DNA of 64,000 nt from Terriglobia bacterium (GTDB taxonomy: Bacteria > Acidobacteriota > Terriglobia > JAJPHL01 > JAPKYU01). The position numbers and the translations under genes were made by a program. Below, piece by piece: positions 26,565 to 32,918 of the stretch; position 1 is the stretch's first letter, and every line of letters begins with the position of its first letter. The stretch is from assembly GCA_965223005.1 (NCBI GenBank), contig CBDCVK010000010.1:672001-736000 (forward strand), read 5' to 3'. The notes under the pieces were generated by a model. The model was not told the DNA's origin. It saw only the letters and a list, made by a program, of their open reading frames with translations, and did no database searches.

Positions 26565-28326
<1,762 letters not shown>

Positions 28327-28334
<8 letters not shown>

Positions 28335-28857
28335 TCCAAAGAACAAGGTCCCAAGCCCGAAGTCGAAATCCGCACCCCGCAATCCGGAATCTATAATTGT
28401 TCTGGCTGTGGGCCTCCCCGGGTCAGGAAAATCCACCTGGTTCGCCCGACGCCGGGTCCAGCCGCTTTCCAGCGATCTGCTGCGCCAGCTGCTGCTCGAT
28501 GACGCCACCGACCAGTCGCAGCAGACCGCGATTTTCTCGGCACTGCGCTGGCTTCTGCGGCTGCGCCTAGGACTGGGGCGGCGCGTTCATTGTGTGGATG
28601 CCACCAACCTGAACCGCCGGGAGCGCCGGGGCTATTTCCGCCTGGCCGCATTGTTCGACTGCCGTGTAGACGCGGTCTTCTTCGATGTGCCGCTCGACGT
28701 TTGCCGGGAGCGCAACGCCCGCCGGGGACGCCGCGTGCCGCGGGAGGTCATGCTACGCATGGTGCGCAAGCTGCGCCCGCCCACCTACGCAGAGGGCTTT
28801 CGCCGGATCACCGTCGTGAACGCCTCCGGGCGCGCCCGTCCGCTGCCCCGCCGCTAG
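28327..28857 (+). CDS. P-loop kinase (AAA_33 / polynucleotide-kinase-like)
   Basis: VGLPGSGKST Walker A, SSDLLR, VDATN..R and CRERNARR motifs. Start uncertain; TTG overlapping the fadE end was chosen. Confidence 0.82.
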
Positions 28858-28958
28858 ACTCACGGGTCTCCAGTCTTCAGTTTGTAGTCTCCAGTCTCAT
28901 GCGGAACTTGCAAACCCATCTCTGGCGGCGTAGGATGCGGCCCGGCTTTCCCGGACCT

Positions 28959-29443
28959 ATGTTTTCCCGGCTGCAATTCGCCCAGTTCCGTTTGCGACTG
29001 GCGCCGCAGCAGACGCTGTTCATGCCCGCTCAGAACAAGGGCAACGTCTTGCGCGGTGCGCTCGGCACCATGCTGCGCACGCTTTGCTGCCATCCAGAGT
29101 GTCCGGGGGCACGCCACTGCAACTTGCGCGCCACCTGCCCCTACGCTCAGGTGTTTGAGCCAGCACCACCAGCTGGCTCCTCCGCCCTGTCCAATTACCA
29201 GGCCATTCCTCGCCCCTTTGTTATTCGGCCGCCGGTAACGAAACAGAATGGCGTCATTGAGATTGACGAAAAAACTCAATATGGGCCGGGAGAAACTCTG
29301 GAATTTGGCCTGATTCTGGTGGGCCGCATCACCGAACTCTTGCCCCATTTCGTGCTCAGCTTCGACCGGCTAGCCGAAGCCGGCCTCGGGCTCAACCGCG
29401 CCCGCTGTCGCCTGGAGCGCGTCGAGCAGCTGGCTCCACTTAG
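28959..29443 (+). pseudogene. cas6: Cas6-family RAMP endoribonuclease, N-terminal part (interrupted)
   Basis: GNVLRGALG, Cys cluster CCxxxC..C..CPY, PRPFVIRPP, LEFGLILVG and GLG motifs typical of the Cys-cluster Cas6 (DUF2276-type) family. Confidence 0.85.
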
Positions 29444-29549
29444 CCCGGATTTCCTTTATGAACTATCGGCGGCAACCTTCTGAATGACTCCAACGTCAGT
29501 ATTGATGCGGGTTCCAGCATCAACATTGCCTTCCGGAGGTGTACACCGA

Positions 29550-30878
29550 ATGGGTGAGAGCCAAAAACAGGCGTTTCAACTGTCATTCAACCGGTTTCTG
29601 CGGGTCACATTTCAGGGATCGCGAATCACTTCCGACGGCGGTCTGATTCTGGTGCGCGAGTTGGACGAACGTTTGGGGTTCGGCGAACTTATCGAACAGC
29701 ACTTGATCGACTCTCGGGGGAAGAACACTCGGTTGCCCTTCGCTGACTTGCTGCGGCAGTCCATCTACAGCCGCTTGGCAGGATACGAAGACGTCAACGA
29801 CGCCGAGCGGCTTTCCCAAGATCCGACGTTCCGGCTGATCGGTTCGGAGAAGATCTGGGAACGTGGCGCAGCCCTGACTTCCCGGTTACAGTCGTTCGAG
29901 ACAGAACTGCTGACGCAAGACGAGAACCTTGCTGGTTTGGCAGCGATCAACCGGGATTTGATCGCCAGGGCGGAAGCTATGGATGCGCCGCGCCGGGTGG
30001 TGCTGGACATGGACAGCACCGAGATCCCGGTCTACGGCGAACAGGAGCAGAGCGCCTACAACGGGCATTTCGAGTCGAGTTGCTATCACCCGTTGTTGCT
30101 GTTCAGTCGCGAGGGTGACTGTCTGGCGGCCAAGCTGCGACCCGGCAACGTGCACAGCGCCGAGGATTGGGAAGAACTTCTCCTGCCAGAGATCGAACGG
30201 CAGCAGAAGCTGGGCAAGGAAGTGGTGTTTCGCGCCGACGCCGCCTTCGCCAAGCCGGAGATCTACGACGCACTGGAGGAGCGGGACGTGAAGTATGCGA
30301 TTCGCATCCCGGCCAACGACAGTCTGGAGAGGGACATCGCGGAGTTGTTGACGCGGCCAGTGGGGCGACCGAGCCACAAGCCGGTGGTCTGGTACAAGAG
30401 CTTTCTCTACCAGGCAGCCAGTTGGAAAAAGGCGCGGCGGGTGGTGGCGAAGGTGGAGTTCCACTTTGGCGAACTGTTCCCTCGCGTGGGGTTCATCGTC
30501 ACCAATCTGGAGACCGACAGCCGGGCGGTGGTCCGGTTCTACAACAAGCGGGGCACCGCAGAGCAATGGATCAAGGAAGGCAAGCAGGCGGTAAAGATGA
30601 CCCGGCTGAGTTGCCATCGGTTTCGGTCGAACGAGGTGCGCCTATGGCTGAGCCTGATCGCCTACAACTTGGGAAACCTGTGGCGGCGGCTGGTGCTACC
30701 GAAGAGGATCAACAACTGGTCGCTGACGAGTTTGCAGCAGCGGCTGGTGAAAACGGGAGGACGGCTGGTGAAACATGCGCGATATTACTGGCTTTTGCTG
30801 GCCGAAGGGCACTTGAGCCGGAGGCTGTTCAGCAGCATGCTGCGAACGATCTCGGCACTGCCGCTGCCAGACGGCTAG
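29550..30878 (+). CDS. IS1380-family DDE transposase
   Basis: ITSDGGLIL, GYEDVND, VLDMDST, YNGHF..YHPL, LRPGNVHSA, RADAAF and FYNKRGTAEQWIKEGK motifs. GGAGGT RBS before ATG 29550. Confidence 0.93.
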   Translation: MGESQKQAFQLSFNRFLRVTFQGSRITSDGGLILVRELDERLGFGELIEQHLIDSRGKNTRLPFADLLRQSIYSRLAGYEDVNDAERLSQDPTFRLIGSEKIWERGAALTSRLQSFETELLTQDENLAGLAAINRDLIARAEAMDAPRRVVLDMDSTEIPVYGEQEQSAYNGHFESSCYHPLLLFSREGDCLAAKLRPGNVHSAEDWEELLLPEIERQQKLGKEVVFRADAAFAKPEIYDALEERDVKYAIRIPANDSLERDIAELLTRPVGRPSHKPVVWYKSFLYQAASWKKARRVVAKVEFHFGELFPRVGFIVTNLETDSRAVVRFYNKRGTAEQWIKEGKQAVKMTRLSCHRFRSNEVRLWLSLIAYNLGNLWRRLVLPKRINNWSLTSLQQRLVKTGGRLVKHARYYWLLLAEGHLSRRLFSSMLRTISALPLPDG

Positions 30879-31037
30879 CGACCCAGGAGAGAGGGTAATT
30901 TTAGGTGCTCAGAAGTGGTCGGGCCGGACAAGTGTCAGCGGCGAGGCAGGCTGGGCAGGCGAAACCCGCACAGCGACTCCGAAGAACAGCCAAAATGTGC
31001 CGCACTACGACCTCAAAGAGGCCCGGGCGATTTGCGA

Positions 31038-31066
31038 TTGACACGACAGGGTAAGAGGCATAGGTT
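31038..31066 (+). promoter_or_regulatory. Outward-facing sigma-70-like promoter inside the IS right end (TTGACA-N17-TAGGTT)
   Basis: Perfect -35, 17-bp spacer, and a -10 keeping T-A...T. Ends 37 bp inside the IS end. Confidence 0.55.
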
Positions 31067-31163
31067 TTCGGGTGAAGGGGAAGCTCAAAATGGAAATTCC
31101 GGGTAAGAGATTAGACCCTGTTTCACTTGACGGACTAAGTCCGCAAGCCAGAAGGGGTGAACC

Positions 31164-31973
31164 ATGAGTTTGTCGAAGATCGTTGCTCTGGGCACCGGGA
31201 TTTACCATCACTACGGCCTGGAAGCTGCACTGAAAGGGATTCATCGGGCCGGGTGCGGCTATGTGGAGATGGCAGCCAACCCACCACATGCAGAACACGT
31301 TTCCCTCGACATGGACGACGCCGCAGTCGAGGCCCTGCTGGCCAAGCTTCAGCAGTACCGTCTCAAGGTCGTGGCTCTAAACGGCAACATCGGCATGATG
31401 AGGAAAGGCGACGTCGAGCGATCCAAGAAACTCATCAGCCTTGCTCCAAAGCTTGGCGCCGGGGTTGTGGTGAATACACTCGGCGGAGCCGGCCTGGAAG
31501 AGGACTTACCCCCGTTTCTGGCCAACGTCGGGGAGGTGGCGGACCATGCCCGAAAAAACGGTGTCACGATTGGCCTGGAAGTGCACGGCAAGCACACTGC
31601 CAACGGCAAACTCGCTTTGGCCACGGTTCGCGCGGTCAATGACCCAAACGTTAAGATCAACTACGATACCGCCAACTGCATCTATTTCGGCGATACCTTG
31701 CCCTACGAAGACCTGCCGGTTGCTGTCCCCGAAATGGCGCACATCCATCTGAAGGATAAGATCGGCGGCAAGGGAGTATGGAACTTTCCGCCCATAGGAA
31801 TGGGTGAAATTGACTTCGAAAGGGTGCTCAACATCTTGGACGACGGAGGCTATCGAGGTGCGCTGAGCGTGGAGATCGAGTTCGACGACCGGGGCTGGCC
31901 TCCTGTTGCCGAGGTGGACGAGGCTGCAAGCTCCGCCTATCGCACCCTCATGCGATTGCTGGAGACGCACTAG
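31164..31973 (+). CDS. Sugar-phosphate isomerase/epimerase (xylose-isomerase-like TIM barrel), cargo gene
   Basis: Metal-ligand motifs IGLEVH, INYDTAN, HIHLKD, G.GEIDF and LSVEIE. Confidence 0.88.
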   Translation: MSLSKIVALGTGIYHHYGLEAALKGIHRAGCGYVEMAANPPHAEHVSLDMDDAAVEALLAKLQQYRLKVVALNGNIGMMRKGDVERSKKLISLAPKLGAGVVVNTLGGAGLEEDLPPFLANVGEVADHARKNGVTIGLEVHGKHTANGKLALATVRAVNDPNVKINYDTANCIYFGDTLPYEDLPVAVPEMAHIHLKDKIGGKGVWNFPPIGMGEIDFERVLNILDDGGYRGALSVEIEFDDRGWPPVAEVDEAASSAYRTLMRLLETH

Positions 31974-32004
31974 CAGGAGCTGAGGGTTTCTGCCCGCGGC
32001 CGTG

Positions 32005-32168
32005 TCAGGCGCTGAGGTTCTTGAACGACTCCTTCATCTTGCGAAACTCAGCTAGGATACCCTTGAATTGCTTCTTATGCGCTTTCATCTGCAAGCCACG
32101 CTCCCGATTTTGGTCGTCGGTCCATTCAACGAGAATGAGGTGCTGACGCGATTTGTGGAGGATTCCGA
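32005..32168 (-). pseudogene. 3' fragment of an unknown donor-locus gene, truncated at the unit end
   Basis: Open frame GILHKSRQHLILVEWTDDQNRERGLQMKAHKKQFKGILAEFRKMKESFKNLSA* runs from the junction to a stop at 32005. It is blocked by TAA inside the target duplication. Confidence 0.55.
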
Positions 32169-32173
32169 CTTAG

Positions 32174-32660
32174 CCAATTCGCAATTCAGAATCCGCAATC
32201 GCAAGTCCTGGTAAGGTTCCTCACCCCGACCGATCTGGTTTTCGAGGAGAAGCAGGTGCGCGAGCCCGAGTTCCATCACCTCGTGCGTCGCCTGCGGGAC
32301 CGGTTGAACGCGCTGGCTACTTTTTACTGCGGCGGTCCGTTGCAGTTGGACTTCCAGGGTCTGGCTAAGCGCGCCCGGGATGTGGGCTGCCTTCGCCGGG
32401 ACTTGCACTGGGAGGAGCGCCAGCGCCGCTCGGCCCGCACCGGCCGCCGCCACTCAATCGGCGGCTTCCTCGGCGAATCCCTCTTCGGCGCCCCGACCGC
32501 CGACGCCTTTGCCGAATTCCTTCCTCTGCTCCACCTCGGCCAGTACCTCCACGTGGGCAAACATGCGGTGTGGGGCAACGGCTGGTACGAAATACAGGGT
32601 AGAGAATTCTCGACCGAAGCCCAGCCGGAAACTCAACGCAAGGCCGCGCTGAGGGTATAA
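32174..32660 (+). pseudogene. cas6: Cas6-family endoribonuclease, C-terminal part (interrupted)
   Basis: VRFLTPT, PEFHHLVRRLRDRL, RRSART, IGGFLG and the Gly-rich loop HVGKHAVWGNGWY. Confidence 0.85.
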
Positions 32661-32713
32661 TAGTGCCCGAAGAAGAGGGGACTGAACTTGCCGGGAATGT
32701 GTTGTACTGACTT

Positions 32714-32788
32714 TGGATTGTTTCCAACGCGCGGACGGCTCAGGCAGCTGACAGCTGACAGGTGAAGACGCGCGTTGGACGCAATCCA
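32714..32788. repeat. 20-bp-arm inverted repeat downstream of cas6
   Basis: tggattgtttccaacgcgcg / cgcgcgttggacgcaatcca (18/20). The loop contains cagctga cagctga caggtga. Confidence 0.8.
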
Positions 32789-32918
32789 TCCTCTCCCAGA
32801 GAACGCCCACTCCAAGGTTTACAGTTGCAATGAGGAAGTCGGCCCCTGCCGCGGGATGGCCTGCCGCGCGCCTGGCACAAGCAAGAGCGGGTGAAGGGGA
32901 CTACCAGACTGGACAGGG

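Follow-up and report, generated by a model that had tools for sequence, protein, structure and literature searches.

Among IS1380-family elements, which measure about 1.65–1.7 kb, ISEcp1 transposes as a unit that is flanked as a whole by a 5-bp duplication. IS1247 of Xanthobacter autotrophicus, of the same family, is reported to mobilise, in a one-ended manner, a catabolic gene lying next to it. According to passages on ISEcp1 in PMC9330008 and PMC3316993, a lone IS moves the DNA adjoining it on the right by means of its true left end and an imperfect right-end look-alike downstream, and the unit lengths vary. Section 7.3 of PMC9330008 describes the ISPme1 TMos of Paracoccus methylutens, also IS1380-family, in which variable 3'-adjacent segments are mobilised, the donor keeps its copy, a pattern reported as replicative, and the cargo has nothing to do with resistance. 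The same section reports that rolling-circle elements of the IS91/ISCR type capture downstream DNA when one end is missed (PMC9330008). The window analysed here (64,000 nucleotides of a Terriglobia bacterium, contig CBDCVK010000010.1) holds a unit that resembles those of ISEcp1 in its true left end, its surrogate right end and the duplication around the whole, but its cargo consists of one metabolic gene and of fragments of genes, it is chromosomal in an uncultured environmental bacterium, and it carries no resistance gene. Like ISPme1, the element moves variable 3' segments unrelated to resistance and keeps its donor, whereas the host group is another one, and native source locus, intermediate and final insertion survive in one genome, with recoverable empty sites. 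IS91/ISCR elements produce no target duplication and have another transposase; since the window element has a DDE transposase and 5-bp duplications, its mechanism is not that of IS91/ISCR rolling-circle transposition. The mechanism is already known from ISEcp1 and ISPme1, while the stepwise capture is new here; among the papers listed when the literature was searched for IS1380 together with Acidobacteria, with sponge symbionts or with transposable modules, none mentions IS1380.

It is confirmed that the IS and 1066 bp of right-flanking DNA (29444–32168) form a 2725-bp unit between two copies of CTTAG, within a Cas6-like gene (Table 1). The IS begins with CCCGGATTTCC and closes with ...GGAAATTCCGG, its right boundary having been set by comparison of 35 complete copies from two sister genomes (G001 and G003). 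The preliminary description had placed the ends at 29444 and 31103 and the passenger at 31104–32168 (1065 bp). The left end of the IS and the right limit of the passenger stand as given, whereas the IS is one base shorter than thought: a relic duplication, GTAAG, starts with the G at 31103, and the cargo therefore begins there. Membership of the IS1380 family, also proposed earlier, agrees with the profile matches of the transposase (372.4 bits to the equivalog model NF033539, cut-off 180; E 1e-118 to PF13701) and with the layout of a 1659-bp element with one 464-aa ORF and short terminal inverted repeats. Target duplications of 4–5 bp were taken as the family criterion, and a perfect 5-bp duplication surrounds the IS alone in 15 of the 35 sister-species copies. 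A copy on contig C6, 83.5% identical, has the target duplication ATTAG. The nearest named relatives of the transposase are mostly from Acidobacteriota MAGs, on which the reading of the host as an acidobacterium is based.

Table 1. Features of the interrupted Cas6-like gene and of the unit within it (window coordinates).
Feature	Position	Strand	Remarks
N-terminal half of interrupted Cas6-like gene	28959..29443	+	Start MFSRLQF chosen to agree with the G001 orthologue (323 aa)
Left copy of target duplication CTTAG (2725-bp unit)	29439..29443		Window sequence, donor and G001 comparison
IS1380-family insertion sequence, 1659 bp	29444..31102	+	Imperfect terminal inverted repeats CCCGGATTTCCTTTATGA... 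and ...TCAAAATGGAAATTCCGG
Transposase ORF, 464 aa	29484..30878	+	Sole ORF of the IS
Relic right-hand duplication GTAAG of the original IS insertion beside the native isomerase gene	31103..31107		Inferred; duplications of this IS are 5 bp long
First captured segment, 949 bp	31103..32051	+	Identical to G000:C8:118337-119299 (native locus), apart from 14 nt inserted in C8
Sugar-phosphate isomerase/epimerase, intact, 269 aa (xylose isomerase-like TIM barrel, PF01261)	31164..31973	+	
Stop codon and last 15-16 codons of native HpcH/HpaI-type aldolase gene	32005..32051	-	Captured alongside the isomerase
Relic right-hand duplication CTAGG left by the shorter unit (IS + 949 bp) that came first	32052..32056		Left partner flanks the IS at the donor only
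Second captured segment, 117 bp	32052..32168	-	Internal piece of the lipoprotein/PEGA-domain gene interrupted by the shorter unit at the donor
Surrogate right end GGAGGATTCCGA	32157..32168	+	7/12 positions as in the true end, ATTCC-N2 register kept
Right copy of target duplication CTTAG	32169..32173		Directly after GGAGGATTCCGA; window sequence, comparison with donor, G001 and public contigs
C-terminal half of Cas6-like gene	32174..32660	+	PF10040 domain, 56 bits, cut-off 25

Several elements of the original reading are plain in the window itself. The IS alone has no flanking target duplication (CTTAG on the left, GTAAG on the right), CTTAG recurs at 32169–32173 directly after the IRR-like sequence GGAGGATTCCGA, and deletion of 29444–32173 joins ...RVEQLAPLS in frame to QFAIQNPQSQVLVRFLTPT. 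The duplication had been put at 4–6 bp; this insertion taken alone is compatible with 3–6 bp, and a length of 5 bp is supported by the 15 IS-only and 10 unit-level 5-bp duplications of the sister species. A given 5-mer is expected to recur about once within some 1 kb by chance, so CTTAG by itself is no proof. It is more than chance because identity to the donor copy is lost at the end of the unit, because G001 has a single CTTAG, and because public contigs skip 2730 bases. In G001, which belongs to the same genus, the sequence ...CCACTTAGCCAATTC... occurs once, with one CTTAG precisely at the predicted join, and the orthologue of the Cas6-like gene is intact (323 aa). Public contigs from four of four runs contain a joint omitting exactly 2730 bases at the site, and one of them, 554 nt long, shows zero differences from the flanks in the window. 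The empty-site allele that the preliminary description had asked for, with the predicted fusion and a single CTTAG, was found both in G001 and in these runs.

The same four runs bear on the possibility that the assembler misplaced a repeated 2.7-kb element in the Cas6-like gene. They gave only the empty-site form, at full flank depth (joint versus flanks 13.2 vs 13.4, 11.6 vs 10–12 and 30.5 vs 25–27), and among the matches listed no record bridges 29443/29444 or 32168/32169, a result that covers contigs only and does not imply that the insertion allele is absent. The assembly also looks poorly polished elsewhere, at the copy on C9. A false join, however, would not repeat, exactly and over 5 bp, a target that is single in G001, nor would it stop at a sequence in register with the true end of the IS. 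Moreover, the window copy has a private base, T at 29739, that changes Leu to Phe in the transposase and differs from the donor copy and from 33 of 33 sister-species copies. An assembly artefact is very improbable on this evidence; the equal depth of empty-site joint and flanks in the four runs suggests that the insertion allele may be rare or specific to one sample.

The preliminary description had predicted a donor in which the isomerase lies beside a full-length convergent gene. Such a copy is present on the same contig, 470 kb away (G000:C10:1171423-1174147), and differs from 29444–32168 by one base. Identity between the two fades within a few bases of the right end of the unit, and at the donor the convergent ORF continues for 170 aa past this point. 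The donor also contains an inner unit: CTAGG stands to the left of its IS and again at the very point at which identity to the native C8 locus ends. Removal of the inner unit restores a 262-aa frame, which matches a 274-aa paralogue in one alignment across the join (E 1.3e-32). A search for the empty site of the inner unit found no close lipoprotein/PEGA orthologue in 12 other genomes (the sole match, in G003, is 32% identical), and the site is therefore supported by the restored frame and the paralogue. The donor region is rich in mobile elements. The copy on C9 was considered as a possible older donor and set aside, since an alignment of 785 columns with 86 gap positions and 31 substitutions leaves its age unreadable.

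The native source of the first captured segment is on contig C8, to which 31103–32051 is alike at 949 of 949 bases, with 14 nt inserted in C8. The passenger was correctly recognised as a sugar isomerase/epimerase, and the 269-aa gene is intact (PF01261). Across the insertion point, the C8 locus is syntenic with its counterparts in G001 and G003. Its own isomerase copy is frameshifted in this assembly, and the only intact copies in this genome are those on the element (donor and window). As assembled, the C8 locus has no IS at the insertion point, only an 11-bp tandem duplication, and the donor of the initial step is absent from the assembly. The 11-bp duplication could be an excision footprint, could be older than the IS, or could be a polishing artefact at the repeat boundary.

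Judged from these sequences, the locus very probably records two successive right-end bypass ('one-ended') transpositions, in which an IS1380-family element enlarged its cargo. The one-ended capture read from the window at the outset is thereby upheld by the donor, the empty site and the other cargo found, although it had been taken for a single step and two are indicated instead. Initially, the IS would have entered GTAAG just upstream of the native sugar isomerase/epimerase gene, at what is now the C8 locus. In a first overshoot, which the sequence shows, it used its true left end and a weak right-end look-alike 949 bp downstream, carrying IS plus 949 bp into the lipoprotein/PEGA-domain gene 470 kb from the window, with duplication of CTAGG. 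A second overshoot from this donor, likewise shown, then extended to GGAGGATTCCGA, 117 bp further within the interrupted gene, and placed IS plus 1066 bp in the Cas6-like gene of the window, with duplication of CTTAG. The donor copy was retained, as in a copy-and-paste or replicative pathway, and the outcome is a split Cas6-like gene and a second intact isomerase copy in the genome.

The behaviour of the IS in related genomes points in the same direction. The scoring of IS candidates covered 40 of 140 in G001 and 40 of 96 in G003. Besides those with a duplication around the IS alone, at least 10 of the 35 are proven units with other right-side cargo of 20–1342 bp, in which the copy's own left 5-mer recurs where homology between siblings ends; copies with different passengers had been predicted. 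Right flanks are common to siblings in eight further copies whose unit ends are indistinct (up to 18 of the 35 have right flanks in common), and three others lack any duplication. Endpoints are variable: siblings from one donor differ in cargo length (20 and 264, 125 and 175, 1068 and 1342 bp), and the two units of the window lineage carry 949 and 1066 bp. The cargo is on the right (3') side only, in a unit whose left end is the true one and whose right end is a surrogate, in both window-lineage units and in all 10 resolved units of G001 and G003. Compared with the terminal 12 nt of the true end, 11 surrogate ends have a mean of 6.7 matches, against 3.0 for random genome sites, and this mean was attained in none of 100,000 resamplings. 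The surrogate end of the first step is weak, with 6 of 12 matches, a level reached by about 6% of random sites.

These siblings also bear on the notion of the 2725-bp unit as a fixed transposon, with a proper right end of its own (a 'transporter IS' with its passenger gene), that moved with no overshoot. Such a transposon would account for two nearly identical copies with the same ends, differing at one base, and for a far end that resembles the true one. At the donor, however, the far end falls inside an ORF that continues, a complete true right end persists within the unit, and the cargo is pieced together from the native locus and a second gene, which a relic duplication separates, while siblings in the sister genomes stop at differing distances from one donor; a fixed transposon is thus highly unlikely. 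Recombination or another non-transpositional duplication, with CTTAG present by the coincidence that its chance frequency allows, is scarcely credible given a left boundary at the exact IS end of 35 other copies, a right boundary at an IRR-like motif, and the single CTTAG in the target of G001 and the public contigs.

Among 42 copies of a related IS (64–75%), found in named soil MAGs of Acidobacteriota belonging to five groups, right ends are sharp, no right flank is common past about 20 nt, and no habit of carrying cargo was seen. Copies of the window IS are 99.3–99.8% identical across species whose host genes are 80–97% identical, which may reflect a very recent spread between species. It is possible, if rather doubtful, that this IS lineage is an unusually frequent bypasser of its right end, recently spread between species, and a general shuffler of chromosomal gene fragments whose cargo grows stepwise.

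The target had been called cas6. The Cas6-like domain is present, and the intact G001 orthologue also matches PF10040 (54 bits, cut-off 25), but membership of a CRISPR-Cas locus does not hold: two k-mer scans of the genome for exact repeats with the spacing of an array (20-mers in 4 or more copies, 16-mers in 3 or more) found no CRISPR array, and no cas1/Cas1 was found in the genome, which is 96% complete. TRF, a program ill-suited to arrays, gave one unrelated repeat. An NCBIfam profile search with the Cas6-like gene gave no match, and the intact orthologue matched nothing among PDB sequences below E 0.4. Upstream of the chosen start of the interrupted gene, the ATG at 28899 is a second one in frame. 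In the gene's neighbourhood are a polynucleotide-kinase-like gene and rpoD/dnaG, and at a distance of about 406 kb there is a type III-like module (Cas10/Csm2/RAMP). The target is an orphan PF10040 gene outside any CRISPR-Cas locus, and annotators should not take the interrupted gene as evidence of one.

What is known of IS1380-family elements capturing the DNA beside them comes mostly from resistance genes that clinical bacteria carry on plasmids; DNA of the present organism occurs in a run labelled as a sponge metagenome. The cargo may be maintained by selection, as the sole intact isomerases ride on the element. No promoter or terminator, including an outward promoter at the right end of the IS such as would drive the cargo in an ISEcp1-type unit, was found in 29300–32300 by a scan for the sigma-70 consensus, which is of the E. 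coli type and may not apply to this organism. What becomes of the donor site is treated as an unanswered question for the family in section 7.3 of PMC9330008, and the missing IS and 11-bp duplication at C8 might record it, while retention of the later donor bears on the question of a replicative pathway. With source, intermediate, insertion and empty target all preserved, the locus illustrates that repeated overshoot can enlarge a cargo. The dozens of sibling copies in the sister species are a natural series of surrogate ends, and they provide a candidate end motif for the transposase, ATTCC followed by two or three bases.

The IS that interrupts the Cas6-like gene belongs to the IS1380 family, as first described: its transposase scores 372 bits against NF033539 (cut-off 180) and matches PF13701 (E 1e-118). 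Of the ends proposed in the preliminary description, the left (29444) stands, while the right, put at 31103, lies one base further in, at 31102. All 35 complete copies fetched from two genomes of sister species in the same genus (G001 and G003) start with CCCGG and finish with TTCCGG, and all but two (1689 and 1658 bp) are 1659 bp long, so the window IS spans 29444–31102.

Features of the unit formed by the IS and its right-flank cargo (window positions)
Feature	Position	Length	Sequence or class	Remark
IS left end	starts 29444		CCCGGATTTCC	read directly
IS right end	closes at 31102		...ATGGAAATTCCGG	read directly
Target duplication	29439–29443 and 32169–32173		CTTAG	right copy directly after GGAGGATTCCGA
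Transposase ORF	29484–30878	464 aa	IS1380 family	
Cargo ORF	31164–31973	269 aa	xylose-isomerase-like TIM barrel	PF01261, E 8.5e-36

A donor with a full-length version of the convergent gene had been predicted, and when the region was searched with BLAST across the genome as a whole (G000), 29443–32179 was recovered on the same contig, at C10:1171422–1174158. Within the unit, 29739 is the only base that distinguishes the two copies, and their identity ends within a few bases of its right end. The minus-strand ORF cut at 32168 in the window continues here to 170 aa (C10:1173984–1174496), so that the right end of the unit is a gene-internal point at the donor rather than the end of an element. 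The donor site retains its own copy of the unit. Base 29739 is C in the donor and in all 33 of the 1659-bp sister-species copies, and T in the window copy, a pattern in keeping with the donor as the source of the window copy, which would then have changed at this single base after it moved. The stretch left of the donor copy (C10:1167400–1171400) is rich in mobile elements, with a serine-recombinase fragment, a phage-like replication protein and an IS3-family element that has at least five near-identical full copies in the genome; to the right is a truncated ComM/Mg-chelatase-like gene. The donor junctions are found a third time on C9 (L138, C9:87627–88331), in a form full of deletions: over 785 aligned columns there are 86 gap positions and 31 substitutions, as would result from decay biased towards deletion or from a consensus of low quality.

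Homology between the cargo and another contig, C8, begins exactly at the IS end and finishes exactly at 32051: 31103–32051 matches C8:118337–119299 at 949 of 949 bases, the sole difference being 14 nt inserted in C8. This end point falls within an HpcH/HpaI-type aldolase gene, in its final 16 codons; the gene is convergent on the isomerase gene in C8. C8 is the native isomerase locus, and synteny extends across the insertion point in G001 (86–97% identity) and G003 (78–80%). At the donor site, CTAGG directly precedes the IS and occurs again after 32051, which indicates that an earlier unit (IS plus 949 bp) had entered there and generated a separate 5-bp duplication. When this inner unit is deleted together with one CTAGG, a frame of 262 aa is restored, and it matches a lipoprotein/PEGA paralogue on C8 (274 aa) in a single alignment (residues 61–260, E 1.3e-32) that crosses the join at residue 155. 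The first five cargo bases, GTAAG, would be the duplication made when the IS, by itself, entered the native locus at an even earlier stage, a step that we infer because the G000 assembly has no IS-only copy there.

The native isomerase gene on C8 is frameshifted by the 14-nt insertion, so that the only intact isomerase copies in this assembly sit on the IS unit. The insertion is absent from G001, G003, the element-borne copies and a public contig that covers 31422–32051 and extends past 32051. Exactly at the IS insertion point, C8 also has an 11-bp tandem duplication, GTCGTAAGAGA (around 119299–119320), that G001 lacks; it may be a footprint, may be older, or may have arisen as an artefact of polishing. 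Each of the two changes may be genuine, or an error in the consensus at the boundary of a repeat. All matches of the 269-aa cargo protein to named epimerase/isomerase equivalogs score far under cut-off, and it can therefore be named to class only.

Two other IS1380-family elements, ISPme1 and ISEcp1, are described as moving 3'-adjacent segments of variable length through misrecognition of a downstream sequence resembling the true end, and ISPme1 transposition as apparently replicative (PMC9330008); the process has been termed one-ended transposition (PMC3316993). In all sequence features open to comparison the window unit agrees with these systems, and it fits this type of mobilisation; its cargo is not a resistance gene. 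Among the literature matches listed, no paper linked IS1380 with Acidobacteria or sponge symbionts.

Copies with other passengers, expected from the outset, are present in G001 and G003. Many of the 35 complete copies have a right flank in common with siblings and different left flanks, and in 10 the 5-mer to the left of the copy is found again precisely where sibling homology ends, giving cargo lengths of 20, 125, 175, 264 (twice), 629, 741, 744, 1068 and 1342 bp. A perfect 5-bp duplication surrounds the IS alone in 15 (one copy, L012, is counted in both groups), a further 8 have right flanks common to siblings with unit ends that are not resolvable, and 3 are without any duplication. From these comparisons, right-flank capture is evidently a habit of the IS in both genomes. 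Compared with the final 12 nt of the true end, the 11 surrogate ends (downstream look-alikes of the IS right end, two of them from the window) agree at 6.7 positions on average, vs 3.0 for random genome sites; the higher value was reached in 0 of 100,000 resamplings. The outer window end matches at 7/12, keeping the register of ATTCC plus two bases, and the inner at 6/12, a score as high as that of about 6% of random sites. In MAGs of named soil Acidobacteriota, 42 copies of related IS (64–75%) had no right flank in common beyond about 20 nt.

The frame broken at 29443 picks up at 32174 and scores 56 bits against PF10040 (Cas6; cut-off 25). The original naming of the target as cas6 holds for the domain but not for a CRISPR association. 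Neither a CRISPR array (two k-mer scans) nor Cas1 was found in G000, which is 96% complete. On one side of the Cas6-like gene lies a polynucleotide-kinase-like gene (AAA_33, matching bacterial Pnkp in part) and on the other rpoD/dnaG; a compact type III-like module (L143, C10:1109900–1113951; 531-aa Cas10, Csm2, a RAMP protein and an unassigned 304-aa ORF) is about 406 kb away; and the C-terminal half of the gene is matched in 13 of the 41 genomes searched, G000 included, and in 5 of 6 other same-family genomes. Taken together, these make ‘Cas6’ valid as a domain name only. The Pnkp-like gene (28267–28857) is directly upstream of the Cas6-like gene (28959–32660); in G001 one open frame (475 aa) extends upstream from the latter, and the same gene order may hold. 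As a pair, the two genes may serve RNA processing and have no connection with CRISPR.

An empty-site allele, as predicted, occurs in G001 and in contigs of all four public sequencing runs aligned to 28700–32900. Aligned to G001, the unit flanks overlap by exactly five bases; its empty site reads ...GCTGGCTCCACTTAGCCAATTCGAAATTC... and lies in a gene for an intact 323-aa protein with PF10040. The public contigs join 29437 to 32168, skipping 2730 bases, with eight letters at the joint that fit either side; one of 554 nt (run X16) has zero differences from the window flanks. The joint is covered as deeply as the flanks (13.2 vs 13.4, 11.6 vs 10–12 and 30.5 vs 25–27), so the uninterrupted allele is the dominant one in these runs; one or more of them may be the assembly's source sample. 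Among the matches listed for the four runs, no contig crosses the insertion junctions, though contigs cannot show absence. One contig of run X15 joins the right end of the IS (31102) to its left end (29440) with 12 other letters between; this could reflect either the junction of a circle or two IS copies arranged head to tail with a spacing of 16 bp.

G001 also holds about 20 copies of a second IS, 84–86% identical to the window IS, and G003 several at 77–82%; the genus harbours several expanding lineages of the IS family. Copies of the window IS itself in G000 are only the two unit-borne ones, plus relatives at 83.5% and 79% and some fragments, and G001 and G003 each have at least 17–19 at full length (part of the candidates scored). 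These differ from the window IS at 3–12 of 1659 bases, whereas the Cas6-like flanks are more divergent (96–97% identity in G001, 80–83% in G003), a disparity which suggests that the IS has spread among species recently.
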